54,184 bases of DNA, taken from a virus (Duplodnaviria > Caudoviricetes). The notes beneath the pieces were generated by a model that worked only from the letters and a program-made list of their open reading frames with translations, had not been told where the DNA came from and did no database searches. The stretch is from positions 1 to 54,184 of the IMG/VR virus record IMGVR_UViG_3300017971_000339. The stretch is one strand, 5' to 3'. Both the position numbers and the translations under genes were made by a program. Of this stretch, positions 1 to 54,014 are shown piece after piece (position 1 is the stretch's first letter; every line of letters starts with the position of its first letter).

Positions 1-105
1 AAGTTGGGAATTATTGTAACTCCTAAAACGAAATCAATTTGGTATCCCCACAAGGAAAACGATGATGTAATGTCCATCGCTTTTGAGTTGGACGAGAGCG
101 CATGA
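1..105 (+). CDS. 3' end of a truncated gene (KLGIIVTPKTKSIWYPHKENDDVMSIAFELDESA*), coupled to the glycosyltransferase
   Basis: Open frame from base 1 to TGA at 103-105, ATGA overlap with the next start. Confidence 0.6.
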   Translation, partial: KLGIIVTPKTKSIWYPHKENDDVMSIAFELDESA

Positions 106-992
106 ATCTACCCAGATATCCGATTTATATTCCATCGAAGGGGCGCGCTAAGATGTGTTATACAGCGCGATTTTTGATAGATGACGATGTTCCATTTTTC
201 TTGGTAATCGAGGAGCAGGAGCACGAATCGTATGCTCGTATCTATGGTGATGAGCGCTTGTTGGTGCTACCATTCAGAGATAAGGGTTCTGTAATCCCTG
301 CGCGCAATTGGATCAAGGAACATGCTACGGAGCAGGGGTTTGAGCGTCATTGGCAGCTGGACGATAATATAAAACAGATTGATCGTCTGTATAAGGGCAA
401 GAAAATCAAAACAAATTCTGCAGCTGGATTCTGCTCAGTTGAAGATTTTACCGATCGATATAAAAATATTGCTATTTCTGGAATGAATTACTCGATGTTC
501 GCTTATTCTGGGTCAACGGTTGTTCCTCCGTTCTTTTTGAATTGTAGGGTATATTCCTGCAGCTTGATATTCAACTCTATTCCTAATCAATGGAGAGGGA
601 AATACAATGAGGATACTGATATCTGTTTGCAGGTTTTAGCTGATGGTTGGTGTACGGTGCTGATCAATGTTTTTTTGATACGAAAAATCCGTACCATGCA
701 GATGAAGGGCGGGAATACGGATGAGATTTACAAGGGTGATGGGCGATTGGAAATGGCGCGATCATTGGAAAGATTGTGGCCTGGGGTCGTAAAGACTGGA
801 CGCAGATTTCAGAGACCGCAACACGTGGTGCATGATGCGTGGCGAAAATTCGATACGCAACTAGAATTTAAAGATGAATTTGATCCTGAGAAAATCAAAG
901 AGCGCAACGAATACGGATTGAAATTAAAGCAAGTAGCCCCAGAAGTGCGCAGCGATTACCTAAAGAAGTTGCTCAAAGAAAAAGACGAATAA
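102..992 (+). CDS. TET-associated (TAGT/GREB1-like) GT-A glycosyltransferase, putative DNA base modification
   Basis: YPIYIPSKGRA N-terminus, ARNWI..H, HWQLDDNI (DxD-like), YNEDTDICLQ and MKGGNT motifs. Confidence 0.8.
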   Translation: MNLPRYPIYIPSKGRAKMCYTARFLIDDDVPFFLVIEEQEHESYARIYGDERLLVLPFRDKGSVIPARNWIKEHATEQGFERHWQLDDNIKQIDRLYKGKKIKTNSAAGFCSVEDFTDRYKNIAISGMNYSMFAYSGSTVVPPFFLNCRVYSCSLIFNSIPNQWRGKYNEDTDICLQVLADGWCTVLINVFLIRKIRTMQMKGGNTDEIYKGDGRLEMARSLERLWPGVVKTGRRFQRPQHVVHDAWRKFDTQLEFKDEFDPEKIKERNEYGLKLKQVAPEVRSDYLKKLLKEKDE

Positions 993-3536: not shown

Positions 3537-5294
3537 ATGAGTAGAATAAATAAATGGCTGGATGACAGAACTGGAAAGAGCGATTTACAAGCGCAGCTGG
3601 AACAGGAGCGCTCTGCGTTTGTGGAAGAACTCAAACGTTTGCAGGGAGCAGTCCAGTATCTTGTCGAGGACGCAGCATACGAAGCGCCCATGCCCATAGC
3701 ACCGGAGAACATGGTTTCCAATCTGCGAGAATTTGACAGCCAGCTTGTGAACGAGTTGATCGATCAAAAGAGGTGGGATGTAATCGGTGGATTGGGGTTA
3801 TCGGCATATGATCAAGGCGAGGCTGCGCGCGCTCGCTCGGTTGCTGATTCTCGCTTTCTAGCAATTTATTCACCGCTCGCAGAATGGGGGCTTTCTGTTT
3901 GGACGAATTATGGAATGGGTGATTCTGTGCGCATTACCGCGAACAATCCGGATGCTGATATTATATTCAACGAATTCTGGACGGCAGAGCGAAACGCAGA
4001 TGTGTTAGCAGATGATAAGTTGCAGTATCTTTCTCAGTTTACGCTGCAGGATGGGAATACATTCCTTGCTTTTTTTGCCGACAAAGAAGATGGCAGGGTA
4101 ACAGTTGAGGAAATCCCCGTAGACGAAATTTCGGAGATTGTTACGCATCCCCAGAGAAAAACAGAAAAGCTATTCTATAAGCGCACATTTGAAACCAAAG
4201 ATGGCAATAAAGAAGTGTATTATCCGGATTGGAAAGCGAAGTTTTCCGGTAGATTGGATGATAAGACCATCGCCAAAGTATTGCCAGAGAAAGCAGAGCG
4301 CGCAGATGAAAAGAAATACGATAACGAGATCTTGAATTCTGCCGAGGAAACACTAGGAACAGATGTGGTCGTGATGCACATCGCACATAATCGAAAAAAG
4401 CGCAATGATTTGTGGGGTTGGCCCCTCATGACAAGCGCATCTCCGTATGTCAAAGCACACAAGAAATTCCTGGAAGATCGATTAACTGTAGCTGCCAGCA
4501 AAGCGATGTACGTTCGGAATAAGCGGGTGAAGGGTGGATCTCGTGCAATAGATACGGTACGGAATACGATTCAATCTGCGATCTCATCCACGAATTTCAG
4601 GGATTCAAATCCCGCTGCAGCTGCCGGTTCGGTGGAGATCGATAACGAAGCGATTACAACCACCGAAAAACCCATGATGACTGGTGCGAGCGATGCCAAG
4701 AGCGATGGCGAGATGTTCTCCTGGATTGCGCTCCTGGGTTTGGGGATATTCCCTACAACCGCTGGCATGGATACGAGCAGATGGGCAACCGCTCTGCAGA
4801 TGGATAAAACGTTGTCGATGCAATGGGCGAGATACCGCACCTTCTGGTCAAGCAATTTTCAACGAATGGTAAAAATCGTATTAAGATTTGCAGAAATTTA
4901 CGGGGAGCAGGAATTCATAGATGAGAATGGGAATCCGGATTTGGGCGCGAACGTGAATATCGATACGCTTTCTCTGGTTGATTTTCCGGACGTTGTCAAA
5001 TCGCTTTCACAAGCGGTAAAGGATATGCTCGAACCCTATCTGGACAATGGAATTATCCCAGAGCAAACCGCGAAAGCGTTACTGAGAGAACTCTGGTTGA
5101 TCATGTTGCAAGCGCTCGGTTTACAAACCTCACGAGACATCGCTAGTGAGAGCGCCTTTGGCATTGATGTAGAGGAACTTGATATGCTGCCAAAGCTGCA
5201 CCGCACATTCTTGAAAATGGCACAACAAAAATTCAAAGAAGGCGATTTGACGGAGATTGCGGAATTTCTGACAGACGATTTTTCAGAGGAGTAA
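3537..5294 (+). CDS. Portal protein
   Basis: 585 aa, follows terL; DGNTFL, EISEIVTHP, WGWPL motifs typical of portals. Confidence 0.85.
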   Translation: MSRINKWLDDRTGKSDLQAQLEQERSAFVEELKRLQGAVQYLVEDAAYEAPMPIAPENMVSNLREFDSQLVNELIDQKRWDVIGGLGLSAYDQGEAARARSVADSRFLAIYSPLAEWGLSVWTNYGMGDSVRITANNPDADIIFNEFWTAERNADVLADDKLQYLSQFTLQDGNTFLAFFADKEDGRVTVEEIPVDEISEIVTHPQRKTEKLFYKRTFETKDGNKEVYYPDWKAKFSGRLDDKTIAKVLPEKAERADEKKYDNEILNSAEETLGTDVVVMHIAHNRKKRNDLWGWPLMTSASPYVKAHKKFLEDRLTVAASKAMYVRNKRVKGGSRAIDTVRNTIQSAISSTNFRDSNPAAAAGSVEIDNEAITTTEKPMMTGASDAKSDGEMFSWIALLGLGIFPTTAGMDTSRWATALQMDKTLSMQWARYRTFWSSNFQRMVKIVLRFAEIYGEQEFIDENGNPDLGANVNIDTLSLVDFPDVVKSLSQAVKDMLEPYLDNGIIPEQTAKALLRELWLIMLQALGLQTSRDIASESAFGIDVEELDMLPKLHRTFLKMAQQKFKEGDLTEIAEFLTDDFSEE

Positions 5295-7705: not shown

Positions 7706-8650
7706 ATGCAGAAAAAGAGAACGATTTTGTACGTTGAAAGCGATGATCATGGGGGCAATATTCGGGGGCTAATGTCGCCAGATACCCGACTCCCTGACGA
7801 TAACTTGATATTAGAACTGGCAAATGATGAGGATTTGAGTTTTACGGAAGCGGAATTGATGGTGATTAGCGATCCAAAGGAGTTTGATTATTGCTATCAT
7901 TCCCCAAAACTTAGATCATTCCAGCTATATCTCAATAAACTGAGGAACAGAAATCTTGAATGGCTAGTTGATTTATCTGCAGGTGATGAGATATTGTATC
8001 TTCATTTAGGTGATATTACGCAGGGGCAAAAATATGTTTCTGATTGGGTTACAACCAGGATTGGAGATCAATTCTTGATTGCACTCGCCAATCATCGCCC
8101 TATCATGGAATTACCAAATTTGAAAGCTGCGCGATATGTAGAGGGGACGAGTTCTCACGTGTTCGGAGATGGAACGAGTGGGGGCGTGGTTACTGCTCAA
8201 TTGAAAGCGGAATACCCAGAGATTGACGTAAAACCTATTCATCATGGATTGATTGAATATAATGGGCTGTTGATTGATTGCGCTCATCATGGCCCCGGGC
8301 CTGGATCTCGTAAGTGGTTAGAGGGGAATATTGCCAGCTATTATATACGGGATAGAATGATGAAAGACTTGCTGCGCGGTCGTAATCCTGCAGATTTGTT
8401 CCTGAGAGCGCACTTTCACACTTGGGCGCGCGCATTCTGGAATATTTCCATCGATGACAAAGATTATATATCTGAAATCTGTTTGATGCCTTCCATGTGT
8501 GGCTTGAATTGCTACGGCAGACAGGTTACAAAAAGCGTGGAGCAGATCACAAATGGAGCGCTGGCGTTCGAGATTTACGGGGACAAAATCCTGGATGTGC
8601 ATCGTTGGACAAAAACGCTTGATCTAAGAAACTACGAGGTAATAGCATGA
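7706..8650 (+). CDS. Calcineurin-like metallophosphoesterase
   Basis: SDDH, LGDITQG, GTSSH, AHHG and AHFH metal-binding motifs in canonical order. Confidence 0.8.
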   Translation: MQKKRTILYVESDDHGGNIRGLMSPDTRLPDDNLILELANDEDLSFTEAELMVISDPKEFDYCYHSPKLRSFQLYLNKLRNRNLEWLVDLSAGDEILYLHLGDITQGQKYVSDWVTTRIGDQFLIALANHRPIMELPNLKAARYVEGTSSHVFGDGTSGGVVTAQLKAEYPEIDVKPIHHGLIEYNGLLIDCAHHGPGPGSRKWLEGNIASYYIRDRMMKDLLRGRNPADLFLRAHFHTWARAFWNISIDDKDYISEICLMPSMCGLNCYGRQVTKSVEQITNGALAFEIYGDKILDVHRWTKTLDLRNYEVIA

Positions 8651-36550: not shown

Positions 36551-36569
36551 TAATAAGATCTCAAAGAAT

Positions 36570-36600
36570 AAAAAATCCCCTCGAATTGAGGGGATTTTTT
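36570..36600. terminator. Bidirectional intrinsic terminator between convergent arms
   Basis: AAAAAATCCCCTC-gaatt-GAGGGGATTTTTT. Confidence 0.9.
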
Positions 36601-36625
36601 GTTTGATCATTTCTTTATTCTGAAT

Positions 36626-39537: not shown

Positions 39538-39623
39538 GCATCCTCGCAGCGAGTAGAATCAATCGGATGGGTAACATCGCCCCCGCGAATAATTATAGGG
39601 GTCGGTTTTCGCTGCGAGGATGC
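39538..39623 (-). promoter_or_regulatory. Structured 5' leader closed by a perfect 15-bp stem
   Basis: GCATCCTCGCAGCGA / TCGCTGCGAGGATGC. Confidence 0.7.
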
Positions 39624-39643
39624 GTTAAGGAGATAATAAGATA

Positions 39644-39672
39644 ATATTATCGTTCTAATCTTATTATGTCAA
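39644..39672 (-). promoter_or_regulatory. Sigma70-like promoter for the RHH operon
   Basis: Minus strand TTGACA-17 nt-TAATAT. Confidence 0.65.
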
Positions 39673-41486: not shown

Positions 41487-41951
41487 TTATTTACAGGAAA
41501 TATAAAAATCAATTAGATAGCGCATCTTGCGCGAATGATTTTTTCCTGGAACAGAGTCGAGAACTGCGCTCTGCTCCTCATTGATGTAAAAACCTCCTAG
41601 TTGGCGTGGATAATTCCCATCTTGCGCAGCTGTAAAATCTGGTTGCTGCTCTGCATGGGTTGAATAGAAATCAATCAGGAATCGGATTTTCTCAGAATAG
41701 AAAGTGAGTCCGGTTTCTGAGATTACATCTGCTTGATCTTGCGATACACGGAATCCATTTTTCAGGATGGGATACGTTGGGGGCATGGTGATTTCCTGCG
41801 CATCCTTGCCGAGATCTTGTTCCACTTGCTTTATGATTGCGCTAACCCGCTGTTTTGATACTCCGAATCGCTCCCCAATCTTGGAGAATGAGGGGCGATT
41901 TGGATCAATTGCAGCTTGATAGATTTGCATAGTCTTTTTTGTAATGCTCAT
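41487..41951 (-). CDS. Transcription regulator: sigma-r4-like HTH plus two repeated RHH-like units
   Basis: SFSKIGERFGVSKQRVSAI; internal repeat ending RxLIDFY. Confidence 0.7.
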   Translation of the reverse strand: MSITKKTMQIYQAAIDPNRPSFSKIGERFGVSKQRVSAIIKQVEQDLGKDAQEITMPPTYPILKNGFRVSQDQADVISETGLTFYSEKIRFLIDFYSTHAEQQPDFTAAQDGNYPRQLGGFYINEEQSAVLDSVPGKNHSRKMRYLIDFYISCK

Positions 41952-42361
41952 TTGTTCTCCATTTCCCAGAGATGCGGGAATTCTGCTTGTACCTGCTCTA
42001 ATTTTGTGTATCCTGTTTTAGCGATTAATTCGCTAATAACCTGCTTGTCGTTGATCGCGCCGCGCTTTGAAAATGCAGCGATATTTTTTATCGTAACCCA
42101 TCGCCGAAAATTTCTTGCTTTGAGCGCATTTAATTCTGCTTGGCTCAACGCTAATTTTAGCAGCTGCGCAAGCATTTCGCGATCCAGTTGATTCTGCTCA
42201 TTCAATGAATTTAAAATGCAGCTTTGAGCGATCAATTCCGCTTTTTCTGATCCTAATAATTCGATGAGTTTATTCGTCGCGATCTTTGCATCCCATTCTG
42301 CGTTGCGGGTGCGTGCATGGGGGTCGTTGATTTGCTGGTTGGGATTTCGATTTGCTTTCAT
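41948..42361 (-). CDS. Hypothetical protein
   Basis: AAGGAGTTGAA RBS, preceded by its own promoter. Confidence 0.6.
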   Translation of the reverse strand: MKANRNPNQQINDPHARTRNAEWDAKIATNKLIELLGSEKAELIAQSCILNSLNEQNQLDREMLAQLLKLALSQAELNALKARNFRRWVTIKNIAAFSKRGAINDKQVISELIAKTGYTKLEQVQAEFPHLWEMENK

Positions 42362-42393
42362 AATTCAACTCCTTTTGATTAATGATCTGCGAT

Positions 42394-42426
42394 AATCTTA
42401 TCACATTGTAGAATATGTGTCAATAG
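42394..42426 (-). promoter_or_regulatory. Repeated early promoter, copy 1
   Basis: TTGACA-catattctacaatgtga-TAAGAT on the minus strand. Confidence 0.8.
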
Positions 42427-45133: not shown

Positions 45134-45166
45134 AATCTTATCAGATTGTAGAATACCTGTCAATAG
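45134..45166 (-). promoter_or_regulatory. Repeated early promoter, copy 2
   Basis: TTGACA-ggtattctacaatctga-TAAGAT; 30 of 33 bases match 42394-42426. Confidence 0.8.
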
Positions 45167-45194: not shown

Positions 45195-45223
45195 TTGACA
45201 GAAAAATGGTTGTCGGCTAAGAT
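45195..45223 (+). promoter_or_regulatory. Divergent promoter for the replication operon
   Basis: TTGACA-17 nt-TAAGAT. Confidence 0.75.
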
Positions 45224-46405: not shown

Positions 46406-46431
46406 TAGATCGATTTATAAGGAGTTGAAAA

Positions 46432-48518: not shown

Positions 48519-48585
48519 GGATTGGCAATAATTGCCAAAGTCTATTGACGAATATATGATATAATCAGTAGCAAGGAGTTGAAAA

Positions 48586-49194
48586 ATGATAGACGAAAAA
48601 CCAATATTATTCTCAGGGGAAATGATACGAGCGATCCTGGAAGGGCGCAAGACACAAACGCGGCGCGTTGTAAATCCACAACCGGAATTTGCAGAATCAA
48701 TGGCGAATCCAGAAGATTTGATTTTCAAATGGAATTCTAAGTTTTGGGTTAAAAAATCTGTTGTTATAAATCGATGCCCCTATGGTTCCATTGGTGATCA
48801 ATTGTGGGTGCGGGAAACGTGGCATACAGAAAAACGCTTTGATCGCATCCCGCCAATCAGCCTTCCAAGAGATGCAAAGATTTTGTATCGTACAACTTTC
48901 AAATCAGAAATTGACGATGCTGAATTCGGGAAAAGTCGCCCAAGTATCTTTATGCCTCGCTGGGCCAGCAGGATTGATCTACGCATAACGGGATTGCGAT
49001 TGGAGCGATTGCAAGAGATTACGACTCAAGATATTTTTTCGGAGGGGTGCAAGATAACGCAACGTGACGGTGGTTACCGCGATTGGATTGCGCTCTGGGA
49101 TTCGATCAACGGAAAAATGCGTAAGAATGGAGTGGATATTTCCTGGGCTGCTAATCCCTGGGTATGGGTAATTGAATTCGAGAGAATCCCATGA
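48586..49194 (+). CDS. ASCH/PUA-like phage protein
   Basis: PILFS..MIRAILEGRKTQTRR, LWVRETW, PSIFMPRWASRI, NPWVWVIEF. Confidence 0.85.
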   Translation: MIDEKPILFSGEMIRAILEGRKTQTRRVVNPQPEFAESMANPEDLIFKWNSKFWVKKSVVINRCPYGSIGDQLWVRETWHTEKRFDRIPPISLPRDAKILYRTTFKSEIDDAEFGKSRPSIFMPRWASRIDLRITGLRLERLQEITTQDIFSEGCKITQRDGGYRDWIALWDSINGKMRKNGVDISWAANPWVWVIEFERIP

Positions 49195-49463
49195 TAGACG
49201 AAATTAACGTAGTAATATCCTGCTCCCCAGATGCGCAGATTGGAGAAAAATATAATTTACATATTGCTCCTGATCGTAAATATCGTATGTGGGAGCATCC
49301 AGAATTGATTGTTTTGAATGGGTTCGCGAGTGCCTTTGATGCGTGGATATTCTGCGCTGCTCATTTTGGAATTTGCGCATCTCATCAAAACGGATGTTCT
49401 GCAGAATGGACGTACAAGAATCCAAAGAATGAGCAGCAACCGCAGCAAATGAAATTGATTTAA
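49191..49463 (+). CDS. Hypothetical protein
   Basis: ATGA coupling. Confidence 0.5.
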   Translation: MIDEINVVISCSPDAQIGEKYNLHIAPDRKYRMWEHPELIVLNGFASAFDAWIFCAAHFGICASHQNGCSAEWTYKNPKNEQQPQQMKLI

Positions 49464-49474
49464 GGAGTTGAAAA

Positions 49475-50278
49475 ATGACGAAAATTATCAAGCGAAAAAT
49501 CGCTACTCCACTAAGTATTCGTAACCGAGCGCAGGAATACGCCGCGCGCCCCGAACCGCAAGAGATTTCAAAGGGGCGCAGAGGAGCAACGATTGGGAAT
49601 CTCACCAATGGGGTCAAGCGCGCTCTGTTCTCGAATACTATGAGCAAGCACGATAAAATAAAATTAACCAAAGAGCAGCGGGAATCTATCGATGGGCATT
49701 GCCGATTGGTGGTGTCTTGGTTATTTCTTGATCCTGCAGATATGTTCGTGCCTACATCCAGAACTGTATTGACTCCTCAACAGATTCATGCTCTGGGTAG
49801 ATGGAACAGCGAATATAAGGGCGAATATCCGGATGGTCAATGGGTTGAGCGCTCATCATATTTGGATGAGTTGCAATGGGTTCTATATTGGGCTGGATTA
49901 GCTTATAAGCGCACTGTTGAATCTACTATGATGGGAGATGAATTGACGTTCGGTGAGATCCTGGAACAATACAAGATCGAAACGATTGCAGGGGAGAACG
50001 AACCGGATCATTGGGAGTTGACGACTAATGCGATCCTTGCAGGAGAAGTCAAACCCGAATATCCTGATAAGGTTGAATTGCCAGATGGTGCGGTTTGGTG
50101 CGAATGGTGCGGGGAGTATCCCTCATCCCCTGGAACTGCTTGTAAATCTTGTGTTGCTCTGGGAGCGCCTGAGAGCGCTCAAATCTCAGAAAATGATATG
50201 ACAATCAGGGATGCGCCAAAATCGCCACAGGCTGCTAGTAAGCGCGCTGCAGATGCTTTTGCTGGATTATTCGATTAG
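49475..50278 (+). CDS. Hypothetical protein with C-terminal CxxC...CxxC
   Basis: AAGGAGTTGAAAA RBS; CEWC...CKSC. Confidence 0.6.
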   Translation: MTKIIKRKIATPLSIRNRAQEYAARPEPQEISKGRRGATIGNLTNGVKRALFSNTMSKHDKIKLTKEQRESIDGHCRLVVSWLFLDPADMFVPTSRTVLTPQQIHALGRWNSEYKGEYPDGQWVERSSYLDELQWVLYWAGLAYKRTVESTMMGDELTFGEILEQYKIETIAGENEPDHWELTTNAILAGEVKPEYPDKVELPDGAVWCEWCGEYPSSPGTACKSCVALGAPESAQISENDMTIRDAPKSPQAASKRAADAFAGLFD

Positions 50279-52034: not shown

Positions 52035-52517
52035 ATGGCAAAACAAGAGCAAGTAATTGGGGCTGCAGGAGAGCAACACGCCGAGAACCATCTAAGGATG
52101 CTAGGTTTTGAGATGATCGAAAAGATTGGTACGCCGGTGCGCTTGGTTCAGCTGCCTGGATATGCTGCTAAAGCGTTGAATCGAGCGCGCTATTCTCCAA
52201 AAGGAATCTTTCGGGTAATCTTTGGGGAGAAGGTGTCAGGAGATCGCAGGGCGCTCGTGGGGCGCTCTGGGCGCTCTGTACTGATCGAAACTAAGACAAT
52301 CCTAGATAGAAATCTACGGTACTCAGATTTGCGCTCTCATCAACCTGGGCGATTGCAACGCCACCATGAATTAGGTGGGGTATCTCTGATAACGTGGGTG
52401 CATTCCAGCGGGATTTACGCTCTGCAATGGCCCATCCCCAATTTTGGGTCCAGAAAATCAATTACCCCAGAGAGCGCACGAGATCTACAAATAAAAGATA
52501 TAAAGGAGTTGAAATGA
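52035..52517 (+). CDS. PD-(D/E)xK nuclease, RecU-like Holliday junction resolvase
   Basis: G...E, GD, LIETK and HQ...L motifs. Confidence 0.7.
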   Translation: MAKQEQVIGAAGEQHAENHLRMLGFEMIEKIGTPVRLVQLPGYAAKALNRARYSPKGIFRVIFGEKVSGDRRALVGRSGRSVLIETKTILDRNLRYSDLRSHQPGRLQRHHELGGVSLITWVHSSGIYALQWPIPNFGSRKSITPESARDLQIKDIKELK

Positions 52518-52933
52518 TGGTTTCTGTGGAAACAGGAAAAGGAAAAGACAATAAAAGCGGTTCTGCTAATCGCTCTCTAAAGCGTGGTCATCGTCAGAAT
52601 CGCAATATGCAGGATGCAATCACGGATGCGGTAAATAATAAGCTGCGATTCGATTTCAAAGATCAAGTCAATCTATGTGAATTGATACGCGAGAAATACA
52701 AAGCGCAGCGAGGCGAAATCAACCACCTGATTCGGCGAGCGATGCGCAGGAAATTGTACGATTGGTTAGTGGATGATCTGCAGAGCAGCATTAGTATTGT
52801 TGATCCTGGATTTCTCAGGATTGCCCAGATAACAGACGATCTTTTTCCTGGATACGTTTCGAGAAAAGTTCTCGGTCAATACTGTTCCAGAATTACACAG
52901 AGAAATAAGGAGTTAGCAAATGAGCAAGATTAG
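52514..52933 (+). CDS. Hypothetical basic protein
   Basis: AAAGGAGTTGAA RBS before ATG 52514. Confidence 0.55.
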   Translation: MMVSVETGKGKDNKSGSANRSLKRGHRQNRNMQDAITDAVNNKLRFDFKDQVNLCELIREKYKAQRGEINHLIRRAMRRKLYDWLVDDLQSSISIVDPGFLRIAQITDDLFPGYVSRKVLGQYCSRITQRNKELANEQD

Positions 52934-53681
52934 CCGAACCGAATTATTTGAGCAGGTGTTTGGGCTGGAATTCTGCGATGAAATTGAACAAATTGGTTCG
53001 CAGTATTCGGAGCATTGCTGGCAGATCGGCGATAAGGTAGCCGATGCGCTCGCTCATCTGCAGATGATCAAGAGTGTAATTATTCGTGGGGATTCAAATC
53101 CTGCTAATGCAGCGTATATTCTCGCGATGGGATCAATGGATGTGTATCGGCAACTCTCGCTCCGTTTCGGGATCGCAGAACGGACACTCAGGGATTACCA
53201 TTCGATTGCAGTTTACTATTCGCAGGATGAGCGTGGGCGCTTTGAGGTGCTACCTTTTGCGCATTTCCGGTTTGCAAAAAGCTGTGGAGCAGATTTATCA
53301 ACCAAGATTTTAGAGTTGTCCCTTGCTGCGATGGATGGGAACGGTGGACGACCACCTTCGGTTGCGTGGCTGGAAGTGAACTTGCATCGTGTAACGGGCG
53401 ATCCTGGAATCGTTGATGATGTGGCAGCTACGCAGGATTTGAGTTCTGCAGCTGCAGAATTGACTTCGAGTGATTTCCAGGATGATGAGCAGAGAACCTT
53501 ACCAAGTCCGGTGTTCTATTTTCTGGGATCTCTAAAAAACTTCATGCTGCGCTTAAAACTTCAAATAGAAAAAGCAGAATTGCCTGAGAATATCAGATAC
53601 AAGATTGATTCCATCATTGAATTATCGGAAGAACTCGCCGATGAGTTAATGGTAGAGATTGACACGGAGCGCGAGAACTGA
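52920..53681 (+). CDS. Hypothetical protein, possibly DNA-binding
   Basis: WQIGD and FGIAERTLRDY HTH-like segment. Confidence 0.55.
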   Translation: MSKISRTELFEQVFGLEFCDEIEQIGSQYSEHCWQIGDKVADALAHLQMIKSVIIRGDSNPANAAYILAMGSMDVYRQLSLRFGIAERTLRDYHSIAVYYSQDERGRFEVLPFAHFRFAKSCGADLSTKILELSLAAMDGNGGRPPSVAWLEVNLHRVTGDPGIVDDVAATQDLSSAAAELTSSDFQDDEQRTLPSPVFYFLGSLKNFMLRLKLQIEKAELPENIRYKIDSIIELSEELADELMVEIDTEREN

Positions 53682-53693
53682 TAAACTAAAGAT

Positions 53694-53785
53694 TGAAATT
53701 CGCTGTTATCAAACAGCACTTTTCAACTCCTTTGAGGCTTGATCTCCTCGCGAAAAATCCCCTGACTAATTCAGGGGATTTTTTG
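53694..53785 (+). ncRNA. Candidate small RNA antisense to the early-gene RBS motif
   Basis: Promoter TTGACA(53659)-17-TAAACT(53682); hairpin, unpaired CTTTTCAACTCCTTT, hairpin, terminator. Confidence 0.55.
53753..53784. terminator. Bidirectional intrinsic terminator
   Basis: AAAAATCCCCTGA-ctaat-TCAGGGGATTTTTT. Confidence 0.9.
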
Positions 53786-53804
53786 ATTTTGATGGATGGT
53801 GGAT

Positions 53805-54014
53805 TTATTGATATTCTGAGAATGAGCGCCCCAGAAATGTTTTCCCGACTGGTTCTCCGGTTTCCTTATTAACGTAGATGAAATCGGATGTACCCAGGTG
53901 CTGGATACGATATTTCGAGTGGGTGGCTTGCGCTCCCTTGCGCCCAATTTCTCGCATATGCTCTTTTCCGTATTTCTGGACTACTGCATTACCGCCGTTG
54001 CTCTTTGGTGACAT
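53805..54014 (-). CDS. Small KGG-motif (stress-induced/GsiB-like) protein
   Basis: GG.AV..KYGKEHMREIGRKG. Confidence 0.65.
   Translation of the reverse strand: MSPKSNGGNAVVQKYGKEHMREIGRKGAQATHSKYRIQHLGTSDFIYVNKETGEPVGKTFLGRSFSEYQ

Follow-up and report, generated by a model that had tools for sequence, protein, structure and literature searches.

A probable small RNA gene with an exposed anti-Shine-Dalgarno box behind the last early gene of an uncultured phage

What lies between the last gene of an early operon and the convergent gene that faces it in the tailed phage IMGVR_UViG_3300017971_000339? The record is a 54,184-bp linear stretch of DNA with an estimated completeness of 86%, and this whole stretch is what we call the window. 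Its rightward early/replication operon (~45.2-53.7 kb) encodes a helix-turn-helix (HTH) protein, a DnaB helicase, a methyltransferase-like product, DUF5131 and a resolvase-like product, and closes with a gene for a protein of 253 amino acids (aa). A 69-aa gene comes from the other side, and between the two stands the element examined here, 53659-53792 (Table 1). A first, sequence-only reading of this DNA had proposed that the element specifies a trans-acting small RNA (sRNA), which would pair through a CU-rich segment with the ribosome-binding sites (RBSs) of the early genes. Our analysis makes it quite likely that 53659-53792 is an independent RNA gene, be it an sRNA or a cis-acting unit. For the full statement, which adds an anti-Shine-Dalgarno (anti-SD) action on the phage's own early regulon, we find the case evenly balanced. 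The element would probably belong to a new, syntenically conserved family of phage sRNAs of a known kind. The earlier proposal thus stands in its first half, a plus-strand non-coding unit with an exposed CU-rich anti-SD segment being the best reading in view of the layout conserved after homologous genes; its second half, repression of the early regulon, is plausible, though the match between seed and RBS is in part that of any SD sequence, and an early-to-late or lysis/latency switch free of any protein repressor would be a further conjecture.

The element is preceded by a promoter-like site. TTGACA (53659-53664) and TAAACT (53682-53687), with a spacer of 17 nucleotides (nt), are found exactly where they had been reported; they match the consensus at 10 of 12 positions and form an extended -10 box, the TG of which is supplied by the TGA stop codon of the 253-aa gene. 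Nine sites of the type TTGACA, 16-18 nt, TAnnnT occur in the window, where 100 shuffles gave 2.5 ± 1.5 of them. The TTGACA-N14-TGaTAA of the element recurs at 45163(-) and 42423(-), and sites of the same form are present at 45195(+) and 39672(-), all four of them between genes where a promoter would be expected. The promoter-like site of the element exceeds chance, and at the level of sequence the element has the promoter of its own that a trans-acting anti-SD sRNA calls for. The promoters at 45135-45163(-) and 42395-42423(-) are alike over ~30 nt beyond the hexamers (tctaTTGACA..tattctacaat.tgaTAAGATt..gcagatca), a likeness that suggests a common operator or a duplicated regulated promoter.

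Past the promoter, no ATG-started open reading frame (ORF) and no SD sequence occur on the plus strand in 53694-53750. The reported terminator was recovered at 53751-85, with 15 pairs and a T-run, and is bidirectional. A stem of this strength with its U-run, behind DNA that holds neither SD nor ATG on the plus strand, is what a short non-coding transcript is expected to end on. A second terminator, at 36566-36604, is 85% alike (AAAAATCCCCT...AGGGGATTTTTTG), and both are bidirectional and stand at the ends of convergent blocks. For the 97-nt RNA 53694-53790 RNAfold predicts -36.6 kcal/mol (z -7.06) with the pyrimidine box unpaired. The first hairpin, GCTGTT/AACAGC, falls where it had been described. 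The segment that had been taken as unpaired over its whole length, ACTTTTCAACTCCTTT at 53718-33, is there too, but only AACUCCUUU is predicted to be fully open (unpaired probability ~0.99), as UUUCA would pair with UGAAA at 53694-98. Similarly, the proposed GAGG/CCTC hairpin can be drawn, but it is weak and has no counterpart in the relatives. Two DNA sequencing runs contain the stretch without any difference, and their contigs extend ~940 nt past the end of the window.

Is this arrangement a property of one genome? Searches for close relatives returned none from phage records (by DNA), viral contigs (protein-seeded), a first metagenome scan or genome contigs. Distant ones were obtained by a profile scan of metagenomes, which yielded 16 loci at 24-47% protein identity, and by a 24-sequence profile, which added five loci from viral contigs. 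Nine loci, the window among them, are informative in that non-coding DNA directly follows the homologous gene (the others being L088, L093, L094, L097, L098, L099, L104 and L105). Our results show that eight of these nine share a three-part layout, consisting of a -10 box on the stop codon or at most 12 nt past it, a C/U-rich stretch, and a hairpin or terminator; L097 is ambiguous. In L088 and L093 the site reads TTGACA-17-TAAAAT and the stop codon is TAA; in L105 it reads TTGACA-17-TAGAAT and the stop is TAG. L099 has TTGCAA-17-TATAAT, TATAAT lies across the TAA stop in L104 and the sequence reads TGA-TACAAT in L094 and TGtTATAAT in L098. The C/U-rich stretches of the relatives are CUCUCUCU, ACUCCU and CCUCCUC; UCCUUUCU; CUCUCCUUUCU; CCUCCUUUCU; CCCUCCUU; and UCCCC twice. 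They are predicted to be unpaired in most loci and partly paired in L098 and L105. For comparison, a CU motif of this sort stands within 60 nt upstream of 7 of 36 strict terminators in unrelated phage loci. Genes of this one family are followed by the same layout in five versions unrelated in sequence. Further loci, chosen around DUF5131 and DnaB, contained no homologue of the 253-aa or 69-aa genes and no further copy of the RNA, the best foreign match of our model R1 having an E value of 0.076. L094, L097, L098 and L099 share a motif, AAAAT..GTGTA(A/C)TTACGC, ~100-200 nt past the RNA unit, which may be an operator or an iteron.

One of these versions, the L093-type unit, was found in 11 of the 16 metagenome loci, its copies being 89-97% identical, and was recognised by eye in the viral contig L101, giving 12 loci. 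It stands behind five different upstream genes, whose stop codon is either a TGA within TTGACA or a TAA within the -10 box. Similarity sets in at the -35 hexamer and is lost past the hairpin, the upstream sequence being unrelated between contexts. Given these limits and the variety of upstream genes, the unit behaves as a self-contained transcription unit. When the window element was aligned to it with MAFFT, the two matched in TTGACA, GGAGCG, TAAACT, hairpin 1, ACTCCT, 11-12 nt, CTCCTC, 8-9 nt and a CCCCT stem. All elements of the two-box cassette, from the promoter TTGACA-17-TAAAMT through the hairpin with the CCCCU stem, have a counterpart in the window in the same order and spacing. In the L093-type RNA CUCCUC comes 11 nt past ACUCCU, and there are three pyrimidine boxes, CCUCCUC included. 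RNAalifold keeps hairpin 1, with three compensatory pairs, as well as the terminal hairpin, and the outer stem of hairpin 1 of the window aligns with GUCAAAG/CUUUGGC of the L093-type. Furthermore, a covariance model built from the 12 relatives with the window left out (R2) places 53704-53793 at rank 1 of its 18 matches on both strands of the window. From these alignments, homology between the window element and the L093-type cassette is probable, not proven.

In a scan for the pattern of promoter plus boxes, L101 was the sole match listed from the viral collection, where the window's own record may be omitted. Two matches in genome contigs, one at a signal-peptide gene and one in an unrelated region, were set aside as chance. 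The exact 20-mer of the seed has no match in viral contigs. Downstream of the L093-type hairpin, L086, L092, L096 and L100 carry a second hairpin, CCCCGGCCAGTATCAGCCGGGG, then an RBS and a co-oriented promoterless gene. This RBS is AACAGGAG in L086, L096 and L100, complementary to box 1 (CUCCUGUU), and AACAGGGG in L092. Where such a gene follows, the unit could serve as a leader. Extended complementarity between seed and RBSs in the L093-type loci amounted to a few 8-nt AACAGGAG matches, which we judged too weak to count. In L085, L087, L090, L091 and similar loci, in which extra genes are inserted, the 3' end of the homologue keeps a degenerate promoter, TTGAGA-17-TAATGA, and an intact promoter copy adjoins the RNA.

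What could the exposed box pair with? The 13-mer AAGGAGTTGAAAA occurs exactly four times in the window, at 46419, 48573 and 49462 on the plus strand, each time adjoining an ATG, and at 53720-32 on the minus strand, opposite the seed. Allowing up to one mismatch gives seven matches where 0.14 are expected, a number reached in none of 100 shuffles. The shorter AAGGAGTT is found 15 times against 1.23 expected, and 13 of these copies lie within 41-54 kb. These motif counts bear out every complementary site, of 13 nt or shorter, that had been listed in the sequence-only reading. One copy of AAGGAGTT, at 7877-7884(+), is inside the ORF called at 7706-8650, a gene that may have a later start or an internal one.

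The distribution of these matches follows the organisation of the genome, in which late genes occupy the plus strand up to ~36.5 kb and a leftward early block extends over 36.6-45.1 kb. At least 8 nt of exact complement to the 16-nt seed were found at 13 of 27 early starts and at 2 of 41 late ones (Fisher p 3.9e-5), so that the regulon-like sharing of one RBS sequence by early/replication genes, as had been claimed, is real. The seed is a predicted single-stranded segment complementary to RBSs, with 13-nt complements at four of them. Its strongest duplexes are those with dnaB, 48586, 49475 and 52514 (~-17 kcal/mol), and cofolding the whole RNA with these four leaders leaves a net gain of -10 to -18 kcal/mol. 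The sense of the motif is also telling: of 21 CTCCTT sites in the window, 19 are the antisense side of RBSs and only two are on a transcribed strand, namely the seed of the element and 39632(-), both of them just downstream of strong promoter-like sites. The latter falls within a second candidate anti-SD RNA or leader, 39538-39672(-), with TTGACA(39672)-17-TAATAT followed by AUCUUAUUAUCUCCUUAACGC and by a 15-pair stem, GCAUCCUCGCAGCG.../...CGCUGCGAGGAUGC (-42.7 kcal/mol). On its opposite strand AAGGAG has no plus-strand start codon after it.

We also compared three phages of the family. In its own genome the window seed matches 13 of 73 gene starts, and in the two others it matches 1 of 102 and 3 of 98; the seed of phage G001 matches 8 of 102 own starts as against 1 of 73 in the window and 5 of 98 in the remaining phage. 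In this cross-genome matrix own-genome matches are favoured in two of three phages. Of 30 AGGAG sites in the window that precede an ATG with an ORF of 50 codons or more, 16 have TT after AGGAG, a pair that in neither of the other two phages ranks among the eight commonest. The window seed carries the complementary AA where the relatives have CC or AC. Beyond the SD core its complementarity continues for another 7 nt, over the phage-specific spacer UUGAAAA. A canonical 16S tail has the sequence CACCUCCUU; if that of the host is canonical, the RNA would pair with these RBSs better than the ribosome does.

On this basis a mechanism can be proposed. The promoter built into the last codons and the stop of the final early gene would drive a plus-strand RNA of ~95 nt, composed of a hairpin, the exposed pyrimidine box AACUCCUUU, the second box CUCCUC and the intrinsic terminator. 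This RNA would be a divergent representative of a family of cassettes that, in distant phages, are lodged at the same place behind genes for the same protein family. Its boxes would pair with SD regions. Box 1 and the 3' arm of hairpin 1 together are predicted to form 12-13 continuous pairs with (A)AAGGAGUUGAA(AA) of dnaB, 48586, 49475, 52514 and 42361, and 8-11 pairs could form with about eight further early genes. Pairing would block 30S binding, and synthesis of early/replication proteins would fall as the RNA accumulates. Transcription, the exact ends of the RNA, pairing in vivo and the regulatory outcome are steps that we infer; promoter, fold, terminator, complementarity and synteny are read from the DNA. 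A bolder version, which we put forward tentatively and would not ourselves favour, is that of a modular 'translation timer', that is, an sRNA tied to the stop codon of one phage protein family, which mimics the 16S 3' tail but has been retuned (A for C beside CUCCUU) to AAGGAG-UU and out-competes ribosomes on a dozen early mRNAs. It would be an RNA counterpart of RegB, with the second leader at 39632(-) serving the leftward operon and the linked protein as a possible partner or regulator.

Table 1. Positions in the window of the element, its predicted parts, its predicted targets and the genes around it
Feature	Position	Strand	Remark
Final gene of the early/replication operon, 253 aa, all-alpha phage protein family	52920..53681	+	Promoter in last 8 codons
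Sigma-70-type promoter-like site, TTGACA, 17 nt, TG-n-TAAACT	53659..53687	+	Overlaps TGA stop 53679-81
Predicted small RNA, ~95-99 nt	53694..53792	+	Start inferred 7 nt past -10 box; end = terminator U-run
Hairpin 1: outer UGAAA/UUUCA (53694-98/53721-25), inner GCUGUU/AACAGC (53702-07/53712-17)	53694..53725	+	Predicted fold
Seed / box 1: ACUUUUCAACUCCUUU	53718..53733	+	AACUCCUUU (53725-33) predicted unpaired
Weak second hairpin GAGG/CCTC	53734-37 / 53746-49	+	Predicted fold
Box 2, CUCCUC	53744..53749	+	12 nt past box 1; weakly paired with GAGG 53734-37
Bidirectional intrinsic terminator, 15-pair stem + U-run	53751..53792	both	Between convergent genes
Predicted target: RBS of DnaB-type helicase gene	46419..46431	+	13 nt exact seed complement; adjoins ATG 46432; duplex -17.5, cofold net -13.3 kcal/mol
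Predicted target: RBS of gene 48586-49194	48573..48585	+	13 nt exact; duplex -17.6, cofold net -11.9 kcal/mol
Predicted target: RBS of gene 49475-50278	49462..49474	+	13 nt exact; duplex -17.5, cofold net -10.4 kcal/mol
Predicted target: RBS of gene 52514-52933, AAAGGAGTTGAAA	52502..52514	+	13 nt; duplex -17.0, cofold net -18.1 kcal/mol
Predicted target: RBS of early gene 41948-42361	42364..42375	-	12 nt; duplex -16.2, cofold net -11.9 kcal/mol
52-codon GTG ORF behind inverted RBS	53561..53719	-	Rejected as explanation
Convergent 69-aa gene ending at shared terminator	53805..54014	-	ORF

The 253-aa protein to which the element is linked belongs to a family of 653 representatives (E<=1e-3), the core of which reads RT(L/V)RDY...LPFSHFRFA in proteins P0002-P0154. 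The protein has no match in Pfam or PHROG, and the 68 family members tested have none in Pfam. Its AlphaFold2 model is all-alpha, with a predicted local distance difference test (pLDDT) score of 92.9. The fold search of the PDB gave no match at E<=0.001 (best E 0.42, template modelling (TM) score ~0.2), and the best sequence match in the PDB had an E value of 0.15. Searching the Atlas provided leads only, to ParB-HTH/DUF1016 and DUF6192. Nothing in the model supports or firmly excludes a Q-like antiterminator, and the missing fold match does not exclude such a factor because Q families are diverse. At the other end of the window, the first gene, 102-992(+), matches the TET-associated glycosyltransferase family PF20691 (E 4.9e-45), which hints at hypermodified phage DNA. 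A tRNA search of the window gave none.

Several results weigh against the anti-SD sRNA that we propose. TTGACA encodes I-D-T within a C-terminal motif (I/V-D-N/T) common to distant homologues, and coding may partly explain the hexamer because it sits in the codons of this shared motif. A look-up of the sequencing runs that contain the stretch listed no RNA run. The CU motif set by which the 36 terminators of unrelated phage loci were screened was picked after the data were seen. The covariation in hairpin 1 opposes one divergent sequence to 12 near-identical ones and is in effect a comparison of two sequences, and the match of model R2 at 53704-53793 reaches only 13.1 bits (E 0.35), which is not significant alone. 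The L093-type hairpin has no U-run, and in some of its loci the next gene is co-oriented and has no promoter of its own. As for the seed, its match to RBSs was compared across three phages of the family, the four closest homologues (P0002-P0005, 43-49% identity) being compared as proteins, and the early/late and cross-phage counts use gene starts from our own heuristic calling. The C-rich seed of the L105-type phage G002 matches none of its 98 own gene starts at 8 nt or more, and some late genes, such as that at 3537 (net -10.7 kcal/mol), are likewise predicted to pair with the RNA when cofolded. Finally, the motif is largely a generic strong SD sequence, which accounts for much of the complementarity.

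The generic part of the match leads to the question of whether a genuine RNA might have its main partners elsewhere, either host mRNAs with strong SDs, which it would shut off by virtue of its likeness in sequence to the 16S rRNA 3' tail, or a pyrimidine-binding protein of host or phage, possibly the 253-aa product, which it would titrate. The type C relatives open with generic anti-SD sequences, namely CCUCCUUUCU, CUCUCCUUUCU or CCCUCCUU, the L099 seed fits RBSs of foreign phages no worse than it could fit those of its own phage, and the RNA is always linked to one protein family. Phage sRNAs acting on host genes are also on record, as the portrayal of lambda LPR1/PreS and dnaN in one recent study indicates (10.1101/2024.10.31.621285). 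The window seed, however, with its 7 nt beyond the SD in the UUGAAAA spacer, fits the AGGAG-TT flavour of 16 of the 30 RBSs of this phage, which argues against host targets, and the model of the 253-aa protein gives no sign of RNA binding, as the fold search returned nothing at E<=0.001 and translin-like matches had a TM score of ~0.2. We hold partners of this kind to be rather unlikely. A cis-acting element at the early/late boundary would account differently for a promoter that stands directly after the last early gene and is followed by a short terminated RNA: it would be a promoter whose terminator is passed by antitermination, or a leader or 3' untranslated region (UTR) that masks its own RBS. 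In the window the mRNA of the early operon also includes the boxes, within its 3' UTR, and co-oriented genes follow in most L093-type loci, the next gene being promoterless in L086, L092, L096 and L100. In the window, L093, L094, L098 and L099, on the other hand, the next genes are convergent, so that there is nothing to read into. The next two ORFs of the window are on the minus strand, and no co-oriented late genes of the lambda type lie behind the terminator, which is itself strong and bidirectional. The cassette stays constant while the downstream contexts vary, and the 253-aa model, lacking any fold likeness to solved structures, gives no support for a Q-like factor. A purely cis-acting role thus appears to us improbable, if worth keeping in mind.

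Two further explanations would dispense with the RNA altogether. The sequence-only reading had itself named what would overturn it, a minus-strand gene whose RBS is the inverted motif, with AAAGGAGTTGAAAA, then GTG at 53719 and a 52-codon ORF. Such a gene would have an RBS, a start and a frame open for 52 codons. Three real genes have the identical 13-mer at the identical distance from the start codon, the other 14 copies of AAGGAGTT are all on the sense strand, and the 13 listed ones precede gene starts. It would have neither a conserved ORF with homologues nor a route of transcription, since the site is 10-15 nt behind the 15-pair terminator with no promoter between. Moreover, over 40 of its 52 codons the ORF runs antisense to the length-conserved C-terminus of the 253-aa gene, and in this wobble-sharing frame openness requires only that NNY-TAN and NNT-CAN be absent. 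A hairpin has the GTG at its foot, the encoded peptide is rich in serine and of low complexity, and its exact sequence is absent from a collection of 15 billion proteins, the query having begun with V and not M. In five relatives' loci a start at SD spacing follows two of six motifs, with a per-motif chance of ~46%. The relatives keep the CU box and not the start codon, and we find this gene scarcely credible. The element might instead have no dedicated function, as a 3' UTR with a shared terminator in which a tandem stop gives the promoter-like site and the inverted RBS is a recombination relic at a module boundary. TGATAA is indeed a double stop, TTGACA encodes I-D-T, chance alone would give the window ~2.5 promoter-like sites, and a CU motif precedes 19% of the control terminators. 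Chance remnants would hardly produce the three-part layout in five sequence-unrelated versions after the same gene family, or, behind five different genes, a unit whose sequence between -35 box and hairpin stays 89-97% identical; CTCCTT, besides, is otherwise nearly absent on transcribed strands. We consider an element devoid of function very unlikely.

If the RNA gene acts on the early regulon, phages would time their early programme through one RNA that addresses a 'postcode' shared by RBSs. Few phage regulatory RNAs are known, and these come mostly from model coliphages and staphylococcal prophages. What is new here is a sequence-defined, syntenic candidate RNA cassette in uncultured sediment and marine phages, linked to an unannotated protein family of more than 650 clusters. 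The layout would also provide a rule for searching metagenomes, namely a -10 box on a stop codon, a CU box and a terminator. Should host mRNAs be targeted instead, the element would be a candidate host shut-off RNA.

How does the element compare with known systems? None of the 4227 Rfam models matched the window at the gathering threshold, the best match near the element (E 0.37) being unrelated, and six relatives' loci gave no match at E<=1; a weak fstAT match (E 5.6) was dismissed as noise. Among the papers listed for phage sRNAs with CU-rich or anti-SD sequences, no title or abstract opening describes a phage RNA aimed at the phage's own early RBSs. SprX (RsaOR) of Staphylococcus aureus converting phages pairs through a CU-rich domain with the initiation signals of spoVG and blocks translation, according to the published outline (PMC4005690). 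To that extent the likeness is that of a phage-borne small RNA whose CU-rich part sits on a translation initiation region. As outlined there, SprX differs in that its targets are host genes and its CU-rich part is a loop, whereas the predicted targets here are the phage's own early genes. The two have no sequence or Rfam relation, and the element is tied to the stop codon of a specific phage gene. Lambda LPR1/PreS, a trans-acting sRNA encoded by the phage and found during infection, enhances translation of host dnaN, in the summary given of it (10.1101/2024.10.31.621285). As far as that summary goes, it is unrelated to the element in sequence and context.

In bacteria, sRNAs with C- or CU-rich anti-SD motifs (RsaE/RoxS, RNAIII-type UCCC motifs, AbcR and the alpha-proteobacterial 'cuckoo' RNAs with CCUCCUCCC) expose their boxes, end on an intrinsic terminator and cover many SDs. 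The element resembles them in having several pyrimidine boxes between or in hairpins and an intrinsic terminator; it differs in being phage-encoded, in matching no Rfam model and in a window seed that goes 7 nt past the SD. In the icaR 3' UTR, CU boxes mask an RBS on the same transcript. Among phages, c4 of P1 and P7, sar of P22 and OOP of lambda are small antisense RNAs that pair at or near RBSs of phage genes and are cis-encoded or act within one operon, whereas the one seed described here would reach a dozen scattered genes through an RBS that they share, with nothing encoded on the strand that faces it. Lambda also has a strong promoter, PR', past its last delayed-early gene, Q, from which a short terminated RNA is made (6S RNA, ending at tR') and antitermination proceeds into co-oriented late genes. 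The position of the promoter is alike, but convergent genes come next in the window, L093, L094, L098 and L099, and no Q-like fold was recognised in the 253-aa model. In T4, the endoribonuclease RegB shuts off early genes through the GGAG motif of their SD sequences. RegB is a protein nuclease whereas the agent proposed here would be a base-pairing RNA, and the logic of the shut-off would be the same in both.

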